From positions 1 to 14,509 of the IMG/VR virus record IMGVR_UViG_2534681702_000004: a stretch of DNA of 14,509 nt; one strand, given 5' to 3'. A program made the position numbers and the translations under genes. The notes beneath the pieces were generated by a model. It was given only the letters and a program-made list of their open reading frames with translations. It did not search any database and was not told the origin of the DNA. The stretch is from a virus. Lineage: Duplodnaviria > Heunggongvirae > Uroviricota > Caudoviricetes. Each line of letters starts with the position of its first letter. Within the stretch, counting starts at the first letter, position 1. Positions 2,030 through 14,509 of this stretch are shown here, in pieces.

Positions 2030-4531
2030 CTATCTTTGGTATAACGATTCTTCAAGCTTTCTAATTCTTTCGAAAAGACCTCTCATTATAAATCTATCAA
2101 GCTCCTGATCTCTAAACTGCCAAAGATCACCAGCCGCTCTAATCAACTTCATCTCTCCATTCTTAACTAAGTTTCCAAATTCATCAATTTCAGTAACATA
2201 TTCAAATTCATCATCCCAAGCATCATAACCAATAAATCCGTATTTTTTCCAATCAAGATTATTCTCCTCAAGTATTGCAATAACTTTCTGAACAGTCGTT
2301 CCAGCATGCAGTCTTTTAGATTCATCATCAATCCAAGACCAAAAACCTAGAACTTCTGCAATCTTCATTGCGGCATTTATTTCATCAGCGGTCATACCTC
2401 TAACTGCTGTCTTGAGTCTTGCATCAGAACTTGATTGCGTACCTCCGGCAAAATATCCAACATTATATCTGTTGCTCGCGCGCCCCAAATTTTGGGTTGC
2501 ATCACCAGATGGATGCTGAGTTCCATCGGCTTTAAAAACATAACGATCACTTAAATCTGCAGAAGGAGAGCTTTTTAACGAAATGGTAATATCACCAATT
2601 GATGAAGGTGAAATATCACAACCAGAAAGAGTTGTTGCATTCCTCAGCATGAGATTTCTCTGCGGATGTGCATTAACAGGAATCACCTCTCCTTCCGTAT
2701 CTATAATTACCCCGCCACCGTTATCTATATAGTTTGCAGCAACATTTCCTGACACATCTCCGCTACCAGTCATAACTATCATAGAATCTGTGCAGTTAAC
2801 ACCATACCTTCTGTTGTTTTTCGAACTTGCATTATTAGCTGCTACTGTTGCGTTGTAAACAGAATAGATACCATCTATTACATTATCGCTAGATGTTCCA
2901 CCAGTGAAAGCTATGTTTCCACCATATGACGCTGATACTCCATTTCTGGCATTTAGATATGATCTACCGTTTTCGAAATTAACTTTTGATAACGCCCTGG
3001 CCTCAATACCATTTGTTGAGTTACCACACGCAACACCATTTGGCGCGCTTAACTCACTGTTATTAAATGACCAGAACCCATTCAACCCATTTCCTGAGCA
3101 TACAGATCCGTTGGCCTGAATCGCACCACCGATATCAGATATAATCCCATCTTCACCATTACCAGAGCAAACCATGAATTTTCCTCTGATATGAGCTCCT
3201 TCCGCGTAAATACCGCGCTTTCTATTAGATGATGAAGCTATAAAATTACATACAACACCTGCTCGACCAGAAGCAACAAATCCCTGCTCCCCCCACCCTG
3301 ATATAACAATATCAGGACCAATTGCTAAATTACCAGACATGTCAAATACTTTATTTGATGGATCTGGTTCATCAATTGTTATATCAGGCGTGGCAATAGT
3401 GAACCCATGCGCTCCAATTGTGCCTATAGATTCTGCTACCGAGTAATCACCAACAATGGCTACACCATCAATTGTATTAATACAATCACCACCTGACACG
3501 GCAAAACCATCACAACCAGTATATTTGAGAACCGACTTAATTATAGATACCGATCCTCCAGTTAATGTCGATTCAGGGAAGTTATCAAGATGGCAAGTAT
3601 TATTTACTGTAACATTTGCTCCAGAAACTGACAGTACTTTCCATCCTCCACAGTGCATGTGATATGCACCGGTTCCTGAAACGTCATGTCTAATTATGAT
3701 ATAATCACCAACAGAAACATTTGAAGCATCAGAAAGCGATATCGTTACAGAATAATTTTTCTTCGAACCAGCAACTGATACAAGTGATGTTATTGATGTT
3801 TCATATTTGACACCCTTAATTGTCAAATTATGGGCGCCTATACAACTAACAATGGTCTTTTCTGTAAAATATGAATAGCCAGGGGGAATATTAACTGTAA
3901 GCCGCCCCCTTAACTCACATCTTGAAAACAACTTAAATAATCCAGAAACATCTTTTATTGACGGGTTTGCAACAAACTCACCAGGAGGAATAATTATAGT
4001 TCCTACGTTTGAACTTAAGGCATTTATAATTGCATTTGTTATGCTGCTGTCATTTACAATGTAATCAGCTATGCTGATTGACTCAATCATTTTATCATGA
4101 ACAGTTCTTCTGTCTGACGACATGCCTGGTTGCTTTACGTTAACAAGGTTATCTCCAAGTCCATCCAATGGGCTTAAAAGTTGTGCACGTAGTTGATCTG
4201 GATCATACTTCAGCACATTAGGAAAATAGAACTGCTGCGCACCATACGCATCATAAACAGCCATAGAATGGCCTTGCACGGTAACGAATTTGGCAATCTG
4301 TCCGTTATATACTGGATACCCTGCGGCATTGATGACGATTGGCTGTGCAACAGGAACGTGAGAGCCGTCTTCGTTCTCCACATAGACCTGAATCTGGTTT
4401 TCAGGATTTACCGGGTCAGTGTCAATTTTACCGATATAAATTTTGCCATTGGCTACGGCTTTAAAAGAACGCGCCATAGTGAAGAGTTGCGAAGGCATGC
4501 TTACTACAACATTGGCTGTAATGTCTGTCAT
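2030..4531 (-). CDS. Mosaic tailspike: P22 gp9-type N-terminal head-binding domain (about aa 1-111), divergent beta-helix receptor-binding/depolymerase body, and C-terminal intramolecular-chaperone-like domain (about 2033-2428)
   Basis: The N-terminus [11 protein letters not shown]...[22 protein letters not shown]...ENEDGSH...[12 protein letters not shown]...VLKYDPDQ matches the P22 tailspike head-binding domain from recall; similarity stops after YDPDQ. The middle is Gly/Asn/Ser-rich with repeats typical of a parallel beta-helix. The C-terminus has SSSDARLK, resembling the serine autocleavage motif of endosialidase/K5-lyase-type chaperone domains. GGAG RBS 8 nt upstream of the ATG. Confidence 0.85.
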
Positions 4532-4631: not shown

Positions 4632-5534
4632 TCAGTAGTTATGTACTGAAGGAGGCAATTCTTTATTCTTAAGTCTCATCCATGCGGAAAGATTCGTTGG
4701 TCCGTCTGGCTCATTAATATCAACATCTCGTGTGTGGTTTATTAAAACGTCTCTCGCCATTCCGATAACATACGAGAATTCATGACCGTAGTCGTAGCAT
4801 CTGCCGGAATAGTTCGATTGAATTTGTTTTAGCGCCAGATACAGTTCGCGGAATAATGCCTGTGAGCGGTTGGCATAATCCCATAACCATACAAGGCTGT
4901 TTGCTTCTTTTGCAGAAAGCTCGTTGGTTTTCTTCTCTTGTTTGCCGATAAATTCACCTTCAAGCACTACCCTGTGGATGTACTCTACGGCTTGCGGTAT
5001 CTGAGATGCATCAAGCTCTTCAATACTTTCCACATTGAAACGCTGATGAATCATTGCATAAGCTTCTGGGTACATTAGATGCTTTTTGCTGACTAGCATA
5101 TTTACAGCATCACGAAGCGGAGTCCTGTCATCAACAGATGTTTTCTTACGTGCATTTTCTGCCTTTCCCTTTGTCCAGTAGTCATGCAGTACAGTAAAGC
5201 ATTCTTCCTGGTACTGAATCAGTTTATCACGGATGTCAGCACGAACTTTCTCAGGGTTGATGCTGAACAGCCATCCATTTAACTTCTTCAAAGGAAGGCA
5301 GAGTAGCTTACGAAGCTTCCCATCAGCGGCAACCATGTTCATATGAACACAGTTGAATTTGCTAATCTGCTTCATGAGTTTTGTTTGCTGCGTTGACCAG
5401 CTCATTCCAAGGTTTTCAACGATTGGCTTCATCGCAACATATGCAACTCCGGCAGCCATGGCGGTGATAATTTGCTGACCGTTGAATGGTACATAAGAGG
5501 TGTTCACTGCTTCTAAAATTGCTATACTATTCAT
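4632..5534 (-). CDS. ant: Antirepressor Ant (P22 immI), 300 aa
   Basis: [43 protein letters not shown]... matches P22 Ant from recall. ATG at 5534 has a GGAGAAAA RBS. The longer ORF in the track starts at a TTG at 5600 and is rejected. Confidence 0.85.
5501..5528 (+). promoter_or_regulatory. Candidate Psar promoter with extended -10 (TGcTATACT at 5520-5528) inside the 5' end of ant, reading antisense
   Basis: The -10 hexamer TATACT has an upstream TG. The weak -35-like TGTTCA sits at the right spacing. This places the start about 5536, just past the ant start codon. Confidence 0.5.
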
Positions 5535-5535
5535 G

Positions 5536-5604
5536 TTGGTTTTTCTCCACGGATTTACTGACAACCGAAGCCCTGACTGTTCCCGCAGTTGGGGCTTCAA
5601 CTTT
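5536..5604 (+). ncRNA. sar: sar-like antisense RNA (about 69 nt) covering the arc-ant intercistronic region and ant RBS
   Basis: P22 encodes a 68-69 nt antisense RNA in the arc-ant spacer. Here the spacer is 68 bp. A hairpin at 5567-5598 is followed by CUUU. Exact ends are inferred. Confidence 0.55.
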
Positions 5605-5764
5605 ACGCGCCAATGCGCCCTTCCTTCTTAAAGCTTTCCATTACTCTCTGATAAATCTCAGAGTTAACAGACCGACCATTCTCTTCCGCCACCTTGCGGA
5701 CCAAATCCAATACTTCTTTAGGCCACCGCAAATTGAACTGCGGCATCTTGCTCATTCCTTTCAT
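5603..5764 (-). CDS. arc: Arc repressor (ribbon-helix-helix), 53 aa
   Basis: [53 protein letters not shown] matches P22 Arc from recall with one substitution (R16K). The track ORF extends upstream into the operator and is trimmed to the ATG at 5764. Confidence 0.92.
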
Positions 5765-5780
5765 ATTCACCTCACAATAT

Positions 5781-5797
5781 AGGTCCACCGTGGACCT
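5781..5797. promoter_or_regulatory. Mnt operator (O_mnt), 17 bp palindrome
   Basis: AGGTCCACCGTGGACCT; its reverse complement AGGTCCACGGTGGACCT is the canonical P22 Mnt operator as recalled. Confidence 0.85.
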
Positions 5798-5806
5798 ATT
5801 GAGAAT

Positions 5807-5827
5807 ATAGTAGAGTGCTTCTATCAT
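5807..5827. promoter_or_regulatory. Arc operator (O_arc), 21 bp, overlapping Pant
   Basis: The reverse complement of 5807-5827 is ATGATAGAAGCACTCTACTAT, the canonical P22 Arc operator as recalled. Confidence 0.85.
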
Positions 5828-5854
5828 GTCAATACACTAACTTGGAGTGATGGC

Positions 5855-6106
5855 ATGGCTAGAGATGATCCGCACTTTAACTTCCGTATGCCTATGGAAG
5901 TAAGGGAGAAATTAAAATTCAGGGCGGAGGCGAATGGGAGATCAATGAACTCCGAGTTGTTACAAATCGTCCAAGATGCTCTATCAAAACCATCGCCTGT
6001 GACTGGATATCGCGACGATGCAGAACGACTCGCTGATGAGCAGTCAGAGCTTGTTAAGAAGATGGTATTTGATACGCTGAAGGATTTGTACAAAAAACCC
6101 ACCTGA
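5855..6106 (+). CDS. mnt: Mnt repressor (maintenance of lysogeny; represses Pant), 83 aa
   Basis: MARDDPHFNFRMPMEVREKLKFRAEANGRSMNSELLQIVQDALSKPSPVTGYRDDAERLADEQSELVKKMVFDTLKDLYKKPT matches P22 Mnt from recall. GGAG RBS 7 nt upstream. Confidence 0.92.
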   Translation: MARDDPHFNFRMPMEVREKLKFRAEANGRSMNSELLQIVQDALSKPSPVTGYRDDAERLADEQSELVKKMVFDTLKDLYKKPT

Positions 6107-6124
6107 AGGTGGGTCCTATTTATT
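6092..6124. terminator. Bidirectional rho-independent terminator between convergent mnt and the lipoprotein gene
   Basis: A6 - CCCACC TGAA GGTGGG - TCCTATTTATT. The mnt stop codon TGA lies in the loop. The minus strand has a U6 tract directly after the stem. Confidence 0.75.
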
Positions 6125-6542
6125 AGTCTTGCTTTGTTGATGGTATAAGAGATGCGTTTGCCTCTTTTGGCTTCAAGGTATACATCCCACCATTAAAAGG
6201 ATCTACAGCAAGCCAACCAATTAACCCACCAAACACAAGGTTTCCACCAATATACCAGCCATTAGCATTGGCTTTGATTGGCAGGGTAACTGGTTCGTAC
6301 CCATCCTTTTCCATAGTGATCTGGTAGCTCTTTTTGCCAAAATAACTACCATCTGACTTGGCAAGAGTTACTCCTTGCGGGGTCTTACCTTGCGCAACAA
6401 TCACGCCTGATTCGTCTTTTACCTTAAAGCTCGCACCGGAAGGATTGCTGTTCACTTGCACAAGCTGCGTTTCGTCACCAACAATAGTTGCGCACCCAGA
6501 TAACAATATAGCGCCAGCAACGACGCCAATAATCCTCTTCAT
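6123..6542 (-). CDS. Hypothetical prophage lipoprotein (lipobox LSGC), cargo gene in the sieA position
   Basis: MKRIIGVVAGAILLSGC is a typical signal peptidase II signal. The ORF is followed by a terminator. An alternative start (MEIDMKR...) lies 12 nt upstream at 6554. Function is unknown. Confidence 0.7.
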   Translation of the reverse strand: MKRIIGVVAGAILLSGCATIVGDETQLVQVNSNPSGASFKVKDESGVIVAQGKTPQGVTLAKSDGSYFGKKSYQITMEKDGYEPVTLPIKANANGWYIGGNLVFGGLIGWLAVDPFNGGMYTLKPKEANASLIPSTKQD

Positions 6543-6659
6543 ATCAATTTCCATATTTAAAAAACCGGAAACATCCTAATGACAAACCATTCAAATGTGA
6601 AGTAGGCAAAAGATGTTTACTTTTTTCATGGTATCCTGCTCAAAACTAAGGAGGTTGGC

Positions 6660-7049
6660 GTGAAGCAATTTCTTACTGCTATGTTCTTATTCATATCTTT
6701 TGGGGCTACAGCAGAGTGCTGGGTCGTTGGAGATATGCGCGGAATAAGCTATTCAGAACGAAATAATTTCCATCCGGAAGAAGATGGTTTTAGTGGAACA
6801 TTCATCATTAAGACAAACGGTGAAGATGCCAGCATCACATATTCTGGGACAGATGCGGGCGGCATGGCTTACAAAGCATTGTCTAAAAACTCCATCATAG
6901 GAATCGGCGCGAATGGCGAAACTCAACGCGTTATCGACTCATGGGTAATACATCCTACTGGAACAGTTTTAATGTCAAAAACCATTTCCGGTTATGGAAA
7001 TATGGATTCAACCAAAGCTTTTGTTGGAAAAGTAAAAAGAAAATGTTAG
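6660..7049 (+). CDS. Hypothetical secreted protein (Sec signal peptide with ATA/E cleavage site), cargo gene
   Basis: GTG start with a strong TAAGGAGG RBS at 6647-6654. The N-terminus MKQFLTAMFLFISFGATA is hydrophobic. The mature protein has an N-proximal Cys and a C-terminal Cys. Confidence 0.62.
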   Translation: MKQFLTAMFLFISFGATAECWVVGDMRGISYSERNNFHPEEDGFSGTFIIKTNGEDASITYSGTDAGGMAYKALSKNSIIGIGANGETQRVIDSWVIHPTGTVLMSKTISGYGNMDSTKAFVGKVKRKC

Positions 7050-7073: not shown

Positions 7074-8912
7074 TTACTGCTGTGTTGCCTCAGTAGCAAA
7101 CAGCGGTCTGATGGCATTCGCAGCGTTATTTATCGCTCTTTCATAGGCTGGTGTTCCTGCTTTGGTGTTTGCCAAACGAAGAAGCATATTCCTTGCTGCT
7201 TTGGACTCATACAAGCGCATCATTGCACCAAAACCAGCCTCAAGCCCCATTGATACGCCAAGGGTCGCAGTTGCGCCAATCGTCCTTATCCTGTTGGCTT
7301 GCGATTGCCCCGTCTGAGTTACTACATTTGCGGTGTCTGACCTTGCTGTTTGCTGTAGAACTTCATGAAGAGCATCAAGCTCTTTCATGTGCTTTCCAGA
7401 AAAAATAGTGTTGTAAATTTCACCGCCTGACTGAGATTTCAGCTTATTAACTTCAGTGATGAACTTGGCTGGAGAGTCCCCGGTCTTTTCCGCTATTTTG
7501 CTGACGTAAGCTGCACGCATAGCATCTTTCCCCTTATCATCCAGTGCGCTCCAGATTCGTTTCACGTCAGATGGTTTTCTGCTTAATACAACGGTATTTA
7601 TAAGTTCAGGACTGGCTTCACTGCTTGCCTTGTTGAGCTTGTTGGCAATGTTTTTATTAAGCACCTTATTATAAACGTTTGCATAATCGGAATTTGCTTT
7701 AAGGTATTTTGCTGCGTCTGATGCACCGAGGTTTTTAGCAACTGCGTTACGAAGGTCTTTTGACATTGCATTCTCTACCATATTGGTAGCTGCTTTTGCC
7801 TGGTTGGGGAAGACCATAGCATCTCCCTGAACATTAGATCTAAATGCTGTTCTGTGCTGACGCAAGAGATCAAACGTAACATCCAAATCAGTTGCAGGGT
7901 TTGCTAATTCTTCACGTAGGTTACGCAAGGATGTAAGCAGGCTTTGATTGGCAGACGTCCCAAGCCGTTCCTGTCTTGCGATCGCTGTATTCAGAGCATT
8001 CATGGTATTTGTGGTATCAACTGCGGCATTACCCATTTTATTGGTGACGTCATTGATAACAGCGCCAGCGGCATCCTTCCGCCCCCTTAACGTGGTGGTC
8101 AGAGATTTCACCACATCATCAGGGTTGTACTCACCAAAACGGTCAAAATAATTGCTTACCAGCTTACTCCGCGTTGCATATTGCTCTGCTCGCTTTGAGC
8201 CCGTCCCGAGCAAAGCCCCCTCGGCATCCTGAGTAAGGCCGCGAGTGAAAGCATTTTTCGGCGGGATAACATCAGATGTCATTGGTGTCACGCCCATCGA
8301 TTCTGATGTGGCAATTTTCTTCGCCACTTCTGGCGCAATATCACCTTTTATAGCCGTTATTCCACGCCCTATTCCCTTTGCTGCTGCGGAAAGAACACCC
8401 TGAGCGGCAAGGTTAACTCCGGCATTTTTAGCTGCATTTTGTGCGAAATCGCCTTTCTGATTTGCGGCCTCTGCCAGCGATCCAATAGCCATGCTTCCTG
8501 CCGTTCCAACTCCTGGAACTAAATACCCACCAATTGTTTCACCGGCTTGTGCGTATGGGTCTGTCGGTTTGTCTACTGGACGATAAACATCATCCAAAAC
8601 TTTTGGCCCACCAAGCCCCTGACTGATTGCATTAATCAGACTTGCGCCACCCTGCAATACGTCAAATGGTATGTTTACCAGACCACGACCAGCCTGTTCT
8701 GCAATTTGCCCTGCACTTTGACCACCAGTGAGCCAATCGCCAGCTTGTTGCATCAATGATGGTTCTTCACGTACTGGTGCATTATTGGCCTGATTAACTG
8801 TTTGTTGCTGAACAACCTGACCAGCAAAATAATCATCAATGGCGGCTCCAATATCTTCCGTGCTCGTACCATCAGGGAAGGTAAATGTCTTACCGTTTGC
8901 AGTTACTTTCAT
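7074..8912 (-). CDS. DNA-transfer (ejection) protein, P22 gp16-like
   Basis: About 612 aa, starting [32 protein letters not shown], which resembles P22 gp16 from recall. Ala/Gly/Gln-rich composition. The start overlaps the upstream gene stop (TGATG). An alternative ATG lies at 8915. Position matches gene 16 in the P22 order 20-16-sieA-mnt-arc-ant-9. Confidence 0.72.
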
Positions 8913-9740
8913 CATTCCACCGTAAATTGAATGCCTGATTTTGAGGTATATGATCCAACCTGATTCCGTGGTTCTCCTGAAGGTGTCGAATCTTGTGCTG
9001 GCGCTGCGTCAGTATTCAATGACATATACCGCTTAACGGCACTCCCCAATGATTCACCTTTTTTAACATCCAACCCCAATATCTGACCGCCATTACGCGA
9101 TTGTCCAGGATTGCCATTCGCGCTCATCCACTCAGCTTTAAACTCATTAAACTGCGCGTTTCGTCGCTCAAGGTTTGCCATTGCATCAAGCCATCTTGCG
9201 ACCGTCTCAGGGTTATCCATGTCAGTTGGCGCACCCTGCCGAACGATCTCAACGTCTTTATCCGTTGCTGGGCCGGGAGGTAGGAATTTAAGAACCTGAC
9301 TGTTAACAAGGGCATTTTGGCGGATGCGCAAATCACGCAATGTCGTATCGCTTCCGGTAAGTTTTGCGAACATGTTCTGTGCGTTACCGAACAAACCTGT
9401 CGTTGGTTTTTCTGCTCTGAACTGTTGAGCAAGCGCACTCATAGAATTGGCTGAGTTTGATGATGCTGTGGCATTGTTTACAGCCGTCTCGATGCCTTTT
9501 TCCATGTTTACTGACAGCTTAGGTGCTTCACTAATCAACTGCTGAGCCTTTTCCTGCGCTTGCTGCATCTTAAACCCGAACTCTTGCTGATCCAGAGCCA
9601 AGCGTTGTGCTGCGATATTGTGCCCAGTCATTGCTGACTGATAGGAAAGGTTTTGCCCTCTCGCCTGAAGTGCTTCACCAGCCTGATTGCTGCGGATTGT
9701 CTCTGCCAGCCTGCCTCGGTCAATTTCACGACCAGCCATC
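8912..9740 (-). pseudogene. Ejection protein (gp20-like), 3' portion, separated from its 5' portion by IS629
   Basis: The ORF continues in frame with the 11051-11283 fragment once the IS and one ATC copy are removed (352 aa total). The stop overlaps the gp16-like start. Confidence 0.6.
9738..9740. repeat. Target-site duplication ATC (left copy) of the IS629 insertion
   Basis: ATC immediately flanks both IS termini (9738-9740 and 11051-11053). Confidence 0.75.
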
Positions 9741-9782
9741 TGAACCGCCCCGGGTTTCCTGGAGAGTATTTTATCTGTGAAC

Positions 9783-10673
9783 TCAGGCTGCCAGATCATT
9801 ATTTCCGATGGAAGCATAATAAGCTTTTTCTGCTTCTGCCGGAGGAATATGGCCCAGCCTTTCCAGCAATCGTCGATTGTTATACCAGTCCACCCACGTT
9901 AGTGTGGCCAGTTCCACTTCTGTCCGGTTTTTCCAGCTCTTACGGTGTATTACCTCCGCTTTGTAAAGACCATTGATGCTCTCAGCCATCGCGTTGTCAT
10001 ACGAGTCGCCAGTACTCCCTGTTGATGCCAGTAATCCGGCTTCCTTAAGCCGCTGCGTGTAGGCCAGCGATACATACTGAGAACCTTTATCACTGTGATG
10101 GATTGTGCCGGACGGCCGACGGGCCCACAACGCCTGCTCCAGTGCATCCAGCACGAATGTTGTTTCCATGGATGATGAGACCTGCCATCCCACGATGTAT
10201 CCGGCGAACACATCAATGATGAACGCCACATAAACGAAGCCCTGCCATGTGCTTACCCAGGTAAAATCAGCCACCCACAACTGGTCTGGACGTTCTGCCA
10301 CGAACTGACGGTTTACGCGGTCGCATGCGGCAACGGCTTTCCGGCTGACGGTAGTGCGGACCTTTTTCCCCCGGAGAACACCGGCAAGTCCCATAACTGC
10401 CATGAGACGTGCCACAGTGCATCTGGCCACTCTGATACCTTCCCGTAACAACTGACGCCAGACTTTACGCACACCGTATACCTGGTGATTTTCATCGTAT
10501 ACGCGCTGTATCTCTTTCTTCAGCCAGTCATCGTGCTGCGCACGGGCACTGCGTTTATCCGGATGATGTCGCTGTTGCTGACAATGGTAATACGTTGACG
10601 GGGCAATATGCAGTTCGCTACATACCGGTCCGACCCCGTACTGCTCACGCAGCTTATCCAGCAGTGGCATCAT
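9783..10673 (-). CDS. IS629 transposase OrfB (DDE integrase domain)
   Basis: 296 aa ...[50 protein letters not shown]...[10 protein letters not shown]...[15 protein letters not shown]... matches IS629 OrfB from recall. Confidence 0.9.
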
Positions 10674-10996
10674 TTTTTCCAGAGGCGGTCGAACTCCGCC
10701 TTCGCAAAATAAGCGGAAGCCTGGCGAAGGATATCGTTACTGCGGCGCAGTTCACGATTTTCACGTTCCAGCTCTTTCAGACGCTGACGTTCAGCGCTGG
10801 TGAGCCCACCATCACCGCCCCCGGTATCCCGCTCATGCTGGCGAACCCAGACACGCAGAGTCTCCGGCGTACAGCCAATCTTTGGGGCAATGGAACAAAT
10901 TGCCGCCCACTGTGAGTCATATTCATCCTGACTTTCCAGAACCATACGAATCGCCCGCTGACGGACTTCGGGGGAAAAACGAGTATTTTTAGTCAT
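10670..10996 (-). CDS. IS629 transposase OrfA (HTH / leucine zipper)
   Basis: 108 aa [61 protein letters not shown]... matches IS629 OrfA from recall. An A6 run sits at the orfA/orfB overlap. Confidence 0.9.
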
Positions 10997-11050
10997 CCTG
11001 TTTACCTCTTTCTCAGGGAGTTTAGTCTCCAGGATTTCCGGGGCGGTTCA

Positions 11051-11053
11051 ATC
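11051..11053. repeat. Target-site duplication ATC (right copy) of the IS629 insertion
   Basis: See left copy. Confidence 0.75.
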
Positions 11054-11283
11054 TTATCCTGAACAGCAAACGCCTTTTCTGGTCCAAGCGCACCGAGAGA
11101 CATAGTAGTCAGCATGTGTGATAGCTGCTCTGGATTCTGGATACCTGTCTGAATCATCCAGTCAGCATTAGCACCAACGCGATTTAACCTGTCCTTGTTG
11201 TCAGTAATGAATTTACTGTAGGCTTCCGGTCCCTGAGAAAGAGCGACGTTAGCCCTCATGGCTAAATCGCCCATAACCGACAT
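11051..11283 (-). pseudogene. Ejection protein (gp20-like), 5' portion (77 codons), interrupted by IS629
   Basis: ATG at 11283 with an in-frame stop 36 nt upstream and no convincing RBS. The reading frame is continuous with 8912-9737 after IS removal. Confidence 0.55.
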
Positions 11284-11442
11284 CCTGCACAGGTTGAAGC
11301 CGTCAGGATGGCTATAGAGTTACGAAATGAGATGAATAAGGCATTAATGGAGATAGAGAAACCATTCACTGACAAACATTAAGAGTGGAAATAAAGAAAT
11401 CACACAGCCTCACACTCGATGAGGCCTGTACATATCTGATAG

Positions 11443-11482: not shown

Positions 11483-13784
<2,302 letters not shown>

Positions 13785-13789
13785 GTAAC
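13785..13789. repeat. Target-site duplication GTAAC (right copy) of the IS100 insertion
   Basis: See left copy. Confidence 0.8.
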
Positions 13790-14509
13790 AAGCGTTCTTC
13801 TGAAATCATGTGTTCGCCAGTAACCTATATCCATCCCTCCCCTTATTCTATTTACGAATCGGTTGGCTGCAGCGATGCTGATCGGTTTGTTTATGTCTTC
13901 TCCAGGGAAAAGAACATCATTGTACGTTGTCATGGCCTTTTCGAGGAAAGGCTTAATTTGTTCGAAGATTGGACGGCGGATAACATTACCCATCTTGCTA
14001 TGCTCTTTCGGTACGGTCCATACGTTGTCCAGCAGGTCAAACTCTGTCTTTGTTGCCAGCCTAAGCTCTGAGAGCCTCGCCCCCCACAGCATAAGCATCT
14101 GATGAAGTAGCTTATTTGACGTAGACGCACGGCTTCTTTCAATAGCAAGCCAAATCTTAGCCAGTTCGTGATACGACAGTACCCGATCCCCTACCTCAGC
14201 GCGGGAGCCGAAGTCCCTTGGTTGGATGCTCATAATTGCGCAACTATCTATCAACTGACGCCGCATGCACCAACTTATTGCTGATCTTAGTTGACTTAGC
14301 ACCTGCCTTGCTCGGCGTGGATTATCTCTTTCTTCTTCGGTAAGCAGGTCAACCCATTGCTTAACCGTGATAGAAGATGCCGGACGATTAGGAAAGGCGT
14401 CATGCATGCGCTTCATAACCGTTGATCGGTAAAGTGCCTGGGTCTTTTCTCTGAGAGTTGTAGAGACGTAGTTGTCGAACCAGTAGTCGAGACACTGGGC
14501 GACCGTCAT
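13785..14509 (-). pseudogene. P4-type tyrosine integrase, 5' portion (core-binding and part of catalytic domain through HDFRRT), interrupted by IS100; may extend beyond the window
   Basis: ...GYWRTHDFRRTLVT at the junction. The window ends on an ATG (MTVAQ...), but P4-type integrases usually have an extra N-terminal arm-binding domain, so the true start may lie outside. Confidence 0.78.

Follow-up and report, generated by a model that had tools for sequence, protein, structure and literature searches.

The locus between mnt and gene 16

The window in this analysis is the whole stretch of 14,509 nucleotides (nt) from the IMG/VR virus record IMGVR_UViG_2534681702_000004, which was revealed to be an Escherichia coli chromosomal segment lying between dacD and sbcB, holding the right end of a P22-like (Lederbergvirus) prophage. 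Two divergent, intact open reading frames (ORFs) were identified between the maintenance repressor gene mnt and the homologue of the DNA ejection gene 16, exactly where they had been placed by an earlier reading of the sequence (the original prediction). One is a lipoprotein gene of 139 amino acids (aa) on the minus strand (6123-6542), here called LIPO, and another is the gene of a 129-aa exported protein on the plus strand (6660-7049), here called SEC. Both products were predicted to be envelope-targeted, and both indeed carry export signals. In P22-like phages this slot is already known as the hypervariable 'ant moron', as Villafane et al. 2008 (PMC2629481) named the gene 16-gene 9 region, where they found ten gene arrangements in sixteen genomes.

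The left border of the slot is mnt (5855-6106, plus strand), an 83-aa ORF with 98% nucleotide identity to P22 mnt. The right border is the gene 16 homologue (7074-8915, minus strand; 613 aa, PGAP name, P22-gp16 family), and the 613-aa gene at the gene 16 position in related loci carries PF26808. The P22 gene order runs from the leftward gene 16 through the rightward sieA, which has its own promoter PsieA, to orf59a and mnt, so SEC occupies the sieA position in the same orientation, convergent with gene 16. Lying behind the PsieA region in the interval from gene 16 to gene 9, and pointing towards gene 16, SEC is placed as SieA is, and for SEC the proposed identity with the sieA slot holds to the nucleotide.

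A bidirectional terminator-like hairpin, ACCCACC-TGAA-GGTGGGT, was called by the terminator scan between the convergent mnt and LIPO (6097-6114). It is flanked by T-runs on both strands, with TTTTTTG after the hairpin on the minus strand, and its epsilon34 counterpart is annotated as a rho-independent terminator, so the bidirectional terminator of the original prediction was found. No clear terminator was seen in the interval between SEC and gene 16. The slot was 100% identical in FORC_031, E1433 and other strains, and 99.8-99.9% identical in O111 strains.

Neither protein had been recognised in the original prediction, and this did not hold: LIPO corresponds to epsilon34 gp15 and Gally gp14 (PHROG 6823), and SEC to Emek orf129 (97% amino-acid identity) and the Hex/Sf6 gp38 family (PHROG 2651). 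Epsilon34 gene 15 had been recorded as having many homologues in bacteria but no known function (PMC2629481).

The exported protein SEC

The GTG start of SEC lies 5 nt after the ribosome-binding site (RBS) AAGGAGG (6648-6654), and the signal peptide MKQFLTAMFLFISFGATA (6660-6713, plus strand) is followed by the mature N-terminus ECW, which is the Sec-secreted protein with a strong RBS that had been expected. In RefSeq/PGAP the start was set at an internal ATG (6681, 122 aa), which loses the first seven residues of the signal peptide, and the PHROG 2651 profile begins at SEC residue 14; the GTG at 6660 with AAGGAGG is the start common to SEC and P22 sieA. The mature protein contains Cys20 (6717-6719) and a C-terminal Cys129 (7044-7046), both on the plus strand.

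SEC was modelled by AlphaFold2 as an up-and-down beta-barrel with a mean predicted local distance difference test score (pLDDT) of 87. The mature part is without a hydrophobic segment (maximum 19-residue hydropathy 0.77), and profile searches against solved structures returned no match. The ratio of nonsynonymous to synonymous substitution rates (dN/dS) of mature SEC was 0.13 against a diverged allele, and that of LIPO was 0.04 against epsilon34 and zero against Gally at dS = 0.054; LIPO and SEC are thus real genes under purifying selection.

The sieA cassette and exchange at the start codon

The 47 nt at the SEC start, including RBS and GTG, differ by only 3 mismatches from the sequence before P22 sieA. 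This sieA-type expression cassette, TTTACTTTTTTCATGGTATCCTGCTCAAAACTAAGGAGGTTGGCGTG (6616-6662, plus strand), contains an extended -10-like TGgTATCCT, the RBS and the shared GTG (6660-6662), and overlaps partly with the annotated PsieA. The same block was found before epsilon34 gene 14 (hkcB-like) and Emek orf129, and homology among the P22, epsilon34, Emek and window phages ends at the start codon. SEC replaces the sieA ORF exactly at the GTG and thereby takes over the RBS and proximal promoter region of sieA. A fragment of sieA with 85 bp upstream was sufficient for exclusion in single copy (Leavitt et al. 2024, PMC10883804), and sieA was present in only 22 of 66 P22-like phages (PMC10883804).

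Viral contigs were scanned for the 33-nt cassette core, which gave at least 120 loci; all family counts below are among the matches listed. The ORFs that begin at the shared GTG belong to at least 12 unrelated families, so the cargo turnover that was to be looked for across P22-like prophages was present. SEC was the most frequent (28 loci), then hkcB-like proteins of 107/109 aa (24 loci) and another 109-aa membrane-anchored coiled-coil protein (15 loci). Two membrane proteins, of 62 aa (tm62) and 75 aa (tm75), stood behind the cassette in 9 loci each, and SieA itself in 7. The others were a 116-aa multi-pass protein (6 loci), proteins of 140 aa and 149 aa (5 loci each), a 103/106-aa protein and a 99-aa secreted protein (4 loci each), and a 68-aa secreted protein (2 loci). 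The representative sequence of 11 of the 12 cargo families had a hydrophobic signal or transmembrane segment.

The cassette was found in 214 of 5426 complete E. coli genomes. It was seen in the viral contigs, in E. coli genomes and in the Salmonella/Escherichia phage records examined, and was absent from the species-representative genomes scanned. No shared 3' boundary was observed, the sequence downstream of the cargo ORF not being conserved among P22, epsilon34 and the window.

The cargo was correlated with the C-terminal allele of the neighbouring gene 16. The P22-type allele stood beside SEC in 26 of 29 loci and beside SieA in 7 of 7, and the epsilon34-type allele beside the 107-aa hkcB-like gene in 10 of 10; by C-terminal clustering, the gene 16 homologue of the window is P22-type. 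Simple physical linkage can explain this correlation. Escape mutations against SieA map to the C-terminus of gp16, and the correlation between the gene 16 C-terminal allele (7074-7200 in the window) and the cargo could be more than linkage.

SEC and the Hex family

Close relatives of SEC numbered 22 in the first homologue search and 117 in a profile search of 1.84 billion cluster representatives, and the match of SEC to PHROG 2651 had E = 2.9e-61. With tblastn against phage genomes, matches of 27-28% identity and 100% coverage were obtained to the gene directly downstream of cI in 434, lambda-imm434, Sf6 (gene 38), HK446, HK633, Sf101 and Huey. The match in 434 is Hex, annotated as 'repressor protection protein' (1501-1905 of the 434 locus; Sf6 gene 38 likewise at 1501-1905 of the Sf6 locus). 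Pairwise blastp of SEC and Hex gave E = 3e-12, and hhalign of the SEC clade against the Hex clade gave 99.8% probability and E = 3e-28. Judged by these alignments, SEC is a full-length member of the 434 Hex/Sf6 gp38 family.

Among 102 aligned family sequences, Cys20 (mature residue 2) was 100% and Cys129 98% conserved, and a signal-like hydrophobic start was seen in all 45 family N-termini inspected. 434 Hex itself has a typical Sec signal peptide, MIRIAALLSILLTTSANS, followed by ECWIV, and both family cysteines are present.

The name hex stands for heterologous exclusion (PMC3564112). A Salmonella lambda-imm434 lysogen excludes P22, while hex- prophages do not (Susskind and Botstein 1980, as summarised in PMC3564112). 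In the proposal of Shkilnyj et al. 2013, Hex blocks the RecA-stimulated cleavage of the repressor, and lysogeny is made more stable in this way (PMC3564112). Their work used a fragment, sHex, starting at ECWIV, as full-length Hex was toxic and could not be purified (PMC3564112). In that paper the words signal, periplasm and membrane do not occur and export is not considered. The sHex N-terminus coincides with the predicted signal-peptidase site, which is read here as a sign of Hex export, and the cytoplasmic model would need re-examination. A literature search on Hex exclusion gave nothing further than PMC3564112.

The family also occurs elsewhere. A Cronobacter member follows directly after a CI/S24 repressor, and a Klebsiella member stands in the interval from the lysis genes to terS, on the opposite strand, a lambda bor-like position. 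In other P22-like prophages SEC is found in an operon of mnt, then a Rap1a-family gene, then SEC. There mnt overlaps (ATGA) the Rap1a-family gene (PF18602, with its own signal peptide; 5650-5985 of those loci), and SEC starts 16 nt later. The PF18602 Rap1a family gives immunity to type VI secretion amidase effectors, and the prophage mnt operon appears from its gene content to carry an orphan type VI immunity gene. When the SEC alleles of the sieA cassette and of the mnt-Rap1a operon were compared, the mature domains were 95% identical and the signal peptides unrelated (dN 0.57), so the mature part has been joined to two different 5' ends (window 6660-6716 versus 6001-6057 of the mnt-Rap1a-type locus).

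The lipoprotein LIPO

Read from the first in-frame ATG (6554), LIPO would have 143 aa (6123-6554), four residues more than the 139-aa form. A start equivalent to Met5, MK(K/R), was used in all homologues and in the PHROG profile, so the shorter product is favoured within the 139-143 aa given by the original prediction. The signal peptide (6492-6542, minus strand) reads MKRIIGVVAGAILLSGC and is followed by ATIVG; the expected lipobox LSGC was present at 6492-6503, with Cys17 predicted to be lipidated and Ala at +2. Cys17, Ala18, Thr19 and Ile20 were invariant in 25 homologues. In E. coli, the residue at +2 of a lipoprotein sets its sorting, and Ala directs it to the outer membrane. By this +2 rule LIPO would be sorted to the outer membrane.

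After the signal peptide, residues 25-93 (6264-6470, minus strand) form a predicted transthyretin/PEGA/CnaB-like beta-sandwich domain, and residues 94-121 (6180-6263, minus strand) a Gly-rich hydrophobic segment, NGWYIGGNLVFGGLIGWLAVDPFNGGMY. The most conserved part of the LIPO family is not the sandwich but the N94 to Y121 segment, which is almost invariant. The AlphaFold2 model had a mean pLDDT of 76; the sandwich was confident and the Gly-rich segment was modelled as a low-confidence helix (residues 95-112). The mean Kyte-Doolittle hydropathy of the segment was 1.28, below that of the membrane/signal segments of the other cargo families, and such a value would permit transport to the outer membrane by Lol. 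The segment probably mediates membrane insertion or self-association.

In profile search against solved structures, LIPO gave a weak match to the Ig-like domain of a collagen adhesin (E = 0.0008). A sub-threshold PEGA match (PF08308) and a weak match to a Leptospira family were the sole Pfam/NCBIfam hits for the two proteins, and nothing diagnostic for LIPO or SEC came from Pfam, NCBIfam or PADLOC. A literature search on PEGA-domain prophage lipoproteins found nothing. A promoter-like site for LIPO (TTCACA, 17-nt spacer, TAGGAT; 6573-6601, minus strand) was called by consensus scan, matching 9 of 12 consensus positions, which is no better than shuffled sequence and thus weak evidence only. A by-eye look for a PhoP-box-like motif upstream of LIPO gave nothing convincing.

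Distribution and expression of LIPO

Over 700 proteins across Enterobacterales belong to the LIPO family. In HK97-like E. coli prophages a 68%-identical homologue lies between the tail chaperone and tape-measure genes, which is the slot of the HK97 gp15 moron. In Proteus prophages the homologue stands just upstream of the tape-measure gene, in Pseudescherichia prophages between tail genes I and J, and a longer relative was found in a non-phage chromosomal context. LIPO is a mobile prophage cargo gene. The HK97-like prophages with the LIPO homologue also hold a porin gene (Porin_1/Porin_4) between tail genes M and L (10261-11424 of the locus), a second envelope cargo gene in the tail cluster.

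The protein of GALLYPH_14, in the prophage Gally of E. coli LF82, is identical to LIPO, and published RNA-seq data were available for it (PMC9928086, S1 Table), in which the samples B1 and B6 are taken here as bacteria-only culture-medium controls. In log2 fragments per kilobase per million (fpkm), GALLYPH_14 reached 6.2 and 4.8 in LB overnight culture, 9.8-10.5 in B1 and B6, and 11.0 at 1 h and 9.4-9.5 at 6 h in macrophages (PMC9928086). In the four non-LB conditions it was at about the same level as the Gally C2 repressor (10.5-12), while the neighbouring ejection genes stayed at 2.3-4.2 in all conditions and the late genes were silent (PMC9928086). The LIPO-identical gene is thus transcribed from the prophage, at a level which depends on the condition.

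Expression of the Gally genes mnt, tailspike and GALLYPH_13 goes up under these conditions too (PMC9928086), so the induction of GALLYPH_14 may be regional and not specific. GALLYPH_13 (4640-5155 of the Gally locus), divergent from LIPO, encodes a different lipoprotein, MKKSLLIIPLLLAGC, and is lysogen-expressed, at 4.5 times the prophage background in LB and log2 fpkm of about 10.3 in macrophages at 1 h (PMC9928086). The authors of that study concluded that Gally is without morons (PMC9928086). Features of a moron were found for the present cargo, namely variable presence in syntenic phages, a terminator, and a LIPO-identical transcript in the LF82 lysogen. The proposal of lysogen-expressed cargo was therefore borne out in part: both genes are mobile prophage cargo and a LIPO-identical protein is transcribed in a lysogen, while for SEC transcription is expected from the sieA cassette only.

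Two independent genes

The two genes had been proposed as a functional pair, and the counts spoke against it. In the 5426 complete E. coli genomes LIPO was present in 124 and SEC in 147, and the full 1.5-kb LIPO-SEC arrangement in 44. In 27 of the cassette loci, LIPO is found 87-88 nt upstream of the cassette, and a 28th locus has a 49-aa LIPO remnant next to SieA. LIPO accompanied SEC in 12 of 28 SEC loci, the 107-aa hkcB-like gene in 8 of 10, tm62 in 3 of 9, tm75 in 1 of 9 and the 109-aa class in 2, so that at least five cargo types adjoin it. Gally and phage 720R6 combine LIPO with other genes, the partner in Gally being itself a lipoprotein. LIPO and SEC are independent cargo and the 'pair' is a juxtaposition only; an obligate pair is ruled out by the co-occurrence counts.

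In Emek, a DUF4065 gene pair stands instead of LIPO between mnt and SEC. There, at 1290-2163 of the locus, the DUF4065-domain gene overlaps a 161-aa ORF, and the two look like a toxin-antitoxin pair.

Proposed functions and alternatives

On our reading, LIPO and SEC are two independent lysogen-expressed envelope proteins and SEC is a candidate periplasmic exclusion factor, to which we assign a probability of roughly 0.55. They would be neighbouring lysogenic-conversion ('moron') genes within the 'ant moron' of a P22-like prophage that is now defective. SEC would be exported by Sec and cleaved after ATA. Once in the periplasm, the mature protein would take the form of a soluble beta-barrel of eight strands, in which a Cys20-Cys129 disulfide probably holds the first strand to the last. 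From there it may exclude superinfecting phages, probably by disturbing the apparatus through which incoming P22-like phages eject their DNA across the envelope. LIPO would be a prophage-expressed lipoprotein that modifies the envelope, its gene having a promoter of its own and sharing the terminator. The exclusion role of SEC is argued from the exact replacement of sieA, the homology to an exclusion-linked gene and the universal export signals, and as judged from these sequence features a role against P22-like phages is the most likely one. That its target is the same ejection-protein conduit as that of SieA is a speculation. From the evidence above we infer the expression of SEC in this prophage, the disulfide, the periplasmic and outer-membrane locations and the exclusion activity itself.

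Several observations weigh against this reading. The prophage remnant has kept gene 16, ant and the tailspike gene intact as well, so the intactness of the cargo is no sign of selection for it. PADLOC-DB 2.0 gave no match at E up to 1 for LIPO or SEC. The annotated PsieA is conserved here only in its 3' (promoter-proximal) part, so that transcription of SEC in this prophage is an expectation, and the promoter scan called no promoter for it. The identity of SEC to Hex is just 27%, the exclusion by Hex is known through the summary of the 1980 study in PMC3564112, and the sole biochemical study of Hex puts it in the cytoplasm, blocking RecA-stimulated repressor cleavage (PMC3564112). For LIPO, the expression of GALLYPH_14 in LB was 3.3 times the prophage median, below the five-fold moron cut-off of the authors (PMC9928086), and the promoter region of the Gally gene differs from that of the window.

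SEC might work as was published for 434 Hex, being cytoplasmic or acting before export and blocking the RecA-stimulated autocleavage of 434/P22-type repressors. The homology of the two proteins speaks for it, and so do the 30-fold higher, recA-dependent spontaneous induction of hex- lysogens and the inhibition of 434 and P22 repressor cleavage by sHex in vitro (PMC3564112). A cytoplasmic protein does not agree with signal-like N-termini in 45 of 45 cases and with two cysteines conserved to 98-100%, nor with an sHex that begins exactly at the predicted signal-peptidase site when full-length Hex is toxic. Moreover SEC lies far from the repressor gene, the early region of the remnant being outside the window or lost, and other family members stand between lysis genes and terS; we regard this explanation as improbable. 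Somewhat better placed, though still unlikely, is a periplasmic immunity protein or inhibitor that counters attack from sources other than phages, for example from a type VI peptidoglycan hydrolase, from a colicin or bacteriocin, or from host lysozyme, in which case the slot would collect general envelope-protection genes. The lowest standing of all goes to a two-component envelope system of LIPO and SEC. The genes are adjacent and divergent with a common 117-bp control region, and LIPO is enriched beside SEC in the viral contigs (12 of 28 versus 15 of 92; Fisher p = 0.008 over at least 120 contigs, shared ancestry uncorrected), but these contigs are not phylogenetically independent. Against such a system, SEC occurs without LIPO in 16 of 28 contigs among the matches listed and in some 100 E. 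coli genomes, LIPO has hkcB-like, tm62, tm75 or 109-aa cargo, or the unrelated lipoprotein in Gally, as its neighbour, and each family is found alone in other phage types.

For LIPO, a host-adaptation or envelope-stress factor useful inside host cells, like lambda Bor (serum resistance), is a more serious candidate, though we hold it doubtful. The LIPO-identical GALLYPH_14 was up 14-fold in macrophages versus LB (log2 fold change 3.84, q = 1e-31) and was also high in B1/B6 (PMC9928086); LIPO is an outer-membrane-type lipoprotein with a glycine-rich segment, and the longer relatives lie on chromosomes outside prophages. The slots held by LIPO, however, carry exclusion genes in P22 (the sieA region) and in HK97 (gp15), no similarity to Bor or to glycine-zipper Pfam families was found in the Pfam search, and the rise of mnt and the tailspike gene alongside GALLYPH_14 may reflect a regional induction. 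By analogy, the slots suggest exclusion; the expression pattern fits a host-adaptation or envelope-stress role equally.

The defective prophage around the slot

To the left of mnt the remnant holds arc (5603-5827), ant (4632-5600) and the tailspike gene (2030-4531), all on the minus strand. The prophage is defective, as its gene 20 homologue is interrupted by an insertion sequence (IS) of the IS3 family (9783-10996). An IS21/IS100 element (istB, istA) lies at 11898-13698, followed by a truncated integrase, and an IS2-like element lies at the left end of the remnant. The remnant/IS stretches of the window are 1-1229, 8912-11283 and 11898-14509. The same remnant was present between dacD and sbcB in many strains.

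Novelty and meaning

The region, both ORFs, the variability of the slot and prophage envelope cargo including exclusion genes are already known. As far as the available literature goes, what appears new is the start-codon-precise exchange, the placement of SEC in the Hex family, and the conflict between the export signals and the Hex mechanism; in keyword searches of that literature no mention was found of a link between SEC and Hex, nor of an ORF exchange precise to the start codon behind a conserved sieA cassette.

Three claims could be linked. One is that Hex/SEC might be a new exclusion class, a soluble, disulfide-stapled periplasmic beta-barrel which blocks the trans-periplasmic conduit (gp7/gp20/gp16) of P22-like phages; if so, the cytoplasmic anti-RecA mechanism published for Hex would have arisen as an artefact from a fragment without its signal peptide. 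Another is that the promoter-RBS-GTG block of sieA may serve as a dedicated plug-in site, with the start codon as the exact point at which no fewer than 12 unrelated envelope proteins are swapped. The last is that LIPO possibly adds a third, outer-membrane layer to the same defence. That all three hold jointly is offered tentatively and seems to us rather doubtful.

Which phages can infect pathogenic E. coli and Salmonella is decided by the exclusion genes of prophages, and this bears on phage therapy and horizontal gene transfer. SEC is the commonest replacement of sieA in the viral contigs sampled, among the matches listed, and is tied to Hex of 434, an exclusion gene long known but little understood; the export signals of Hex/SEC cast doubt on the published cytoplasmic mechanism. 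The shared start-codon cassette gives a ready catalogue of at least 12 small candidate envelope defence proteins. If the proteins are without anti-phage activity, the region would be one more case of the known flux in the 'ant moron'.

Comparison with known systems

The slot of the window is the same region as the 'ant moron' of Villafane et al. 2008. Like LIPO, Cor of phi80/N15 and Llp of T5 are small phage lipoproteins with an outer-membrane-type signal, carried as cargo, and the earlier comparison with them was right for the lipobox and sorting signal (LSGC, Ala at +2, family-invariant). It did not extend further: the PHROG Cor match to LIPO was limited to signal-peptide residues 5-24 (E = 0.0036), and no likeness of sequence or fold was seen beyond the signal peptide. 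Fold and size are different, LIPO having a 70-residue beta-sandwich and a Gly-rich segment. The HK97 gp15 moron, whose slot is held by a LIPO homologue in HK97-like E. coli prophages, is reportedly a superinfection exclusion protein; it is unrelated to LIPO, being a 62-aa inner-membrane protein and not a lipoprotein.

P22 SieA and SEC share position, orientation, the 47 nt upstream, RBS and GTG start, without any sequence similarity between the proteins. SieA is a protein of the inner membrane that has three or four transmembrane helices as well as the motif FxRYPxEAxxFNK (PMC10883804). Neither the helices of SieA types A-C nor this motif was found in mature SEC, which in the model is a soluble beta-barrel without a hydrophobic segment.

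With 434 Hex/Sf6 gp38 the position differs, Hex being directly downstream of cI on the PRM transcript and SEC in the sieA slot of the late region, and the export signals in the SEC/Hex family are at odds with the cytoplasmic mechanism published for Hex. The proteins are alike in size, signal peptide, the x-C-W mature N-terminus and the C-terminal FVGxVxGxC, and both are encoded by prophage genes in lysogeny-expressed slots.

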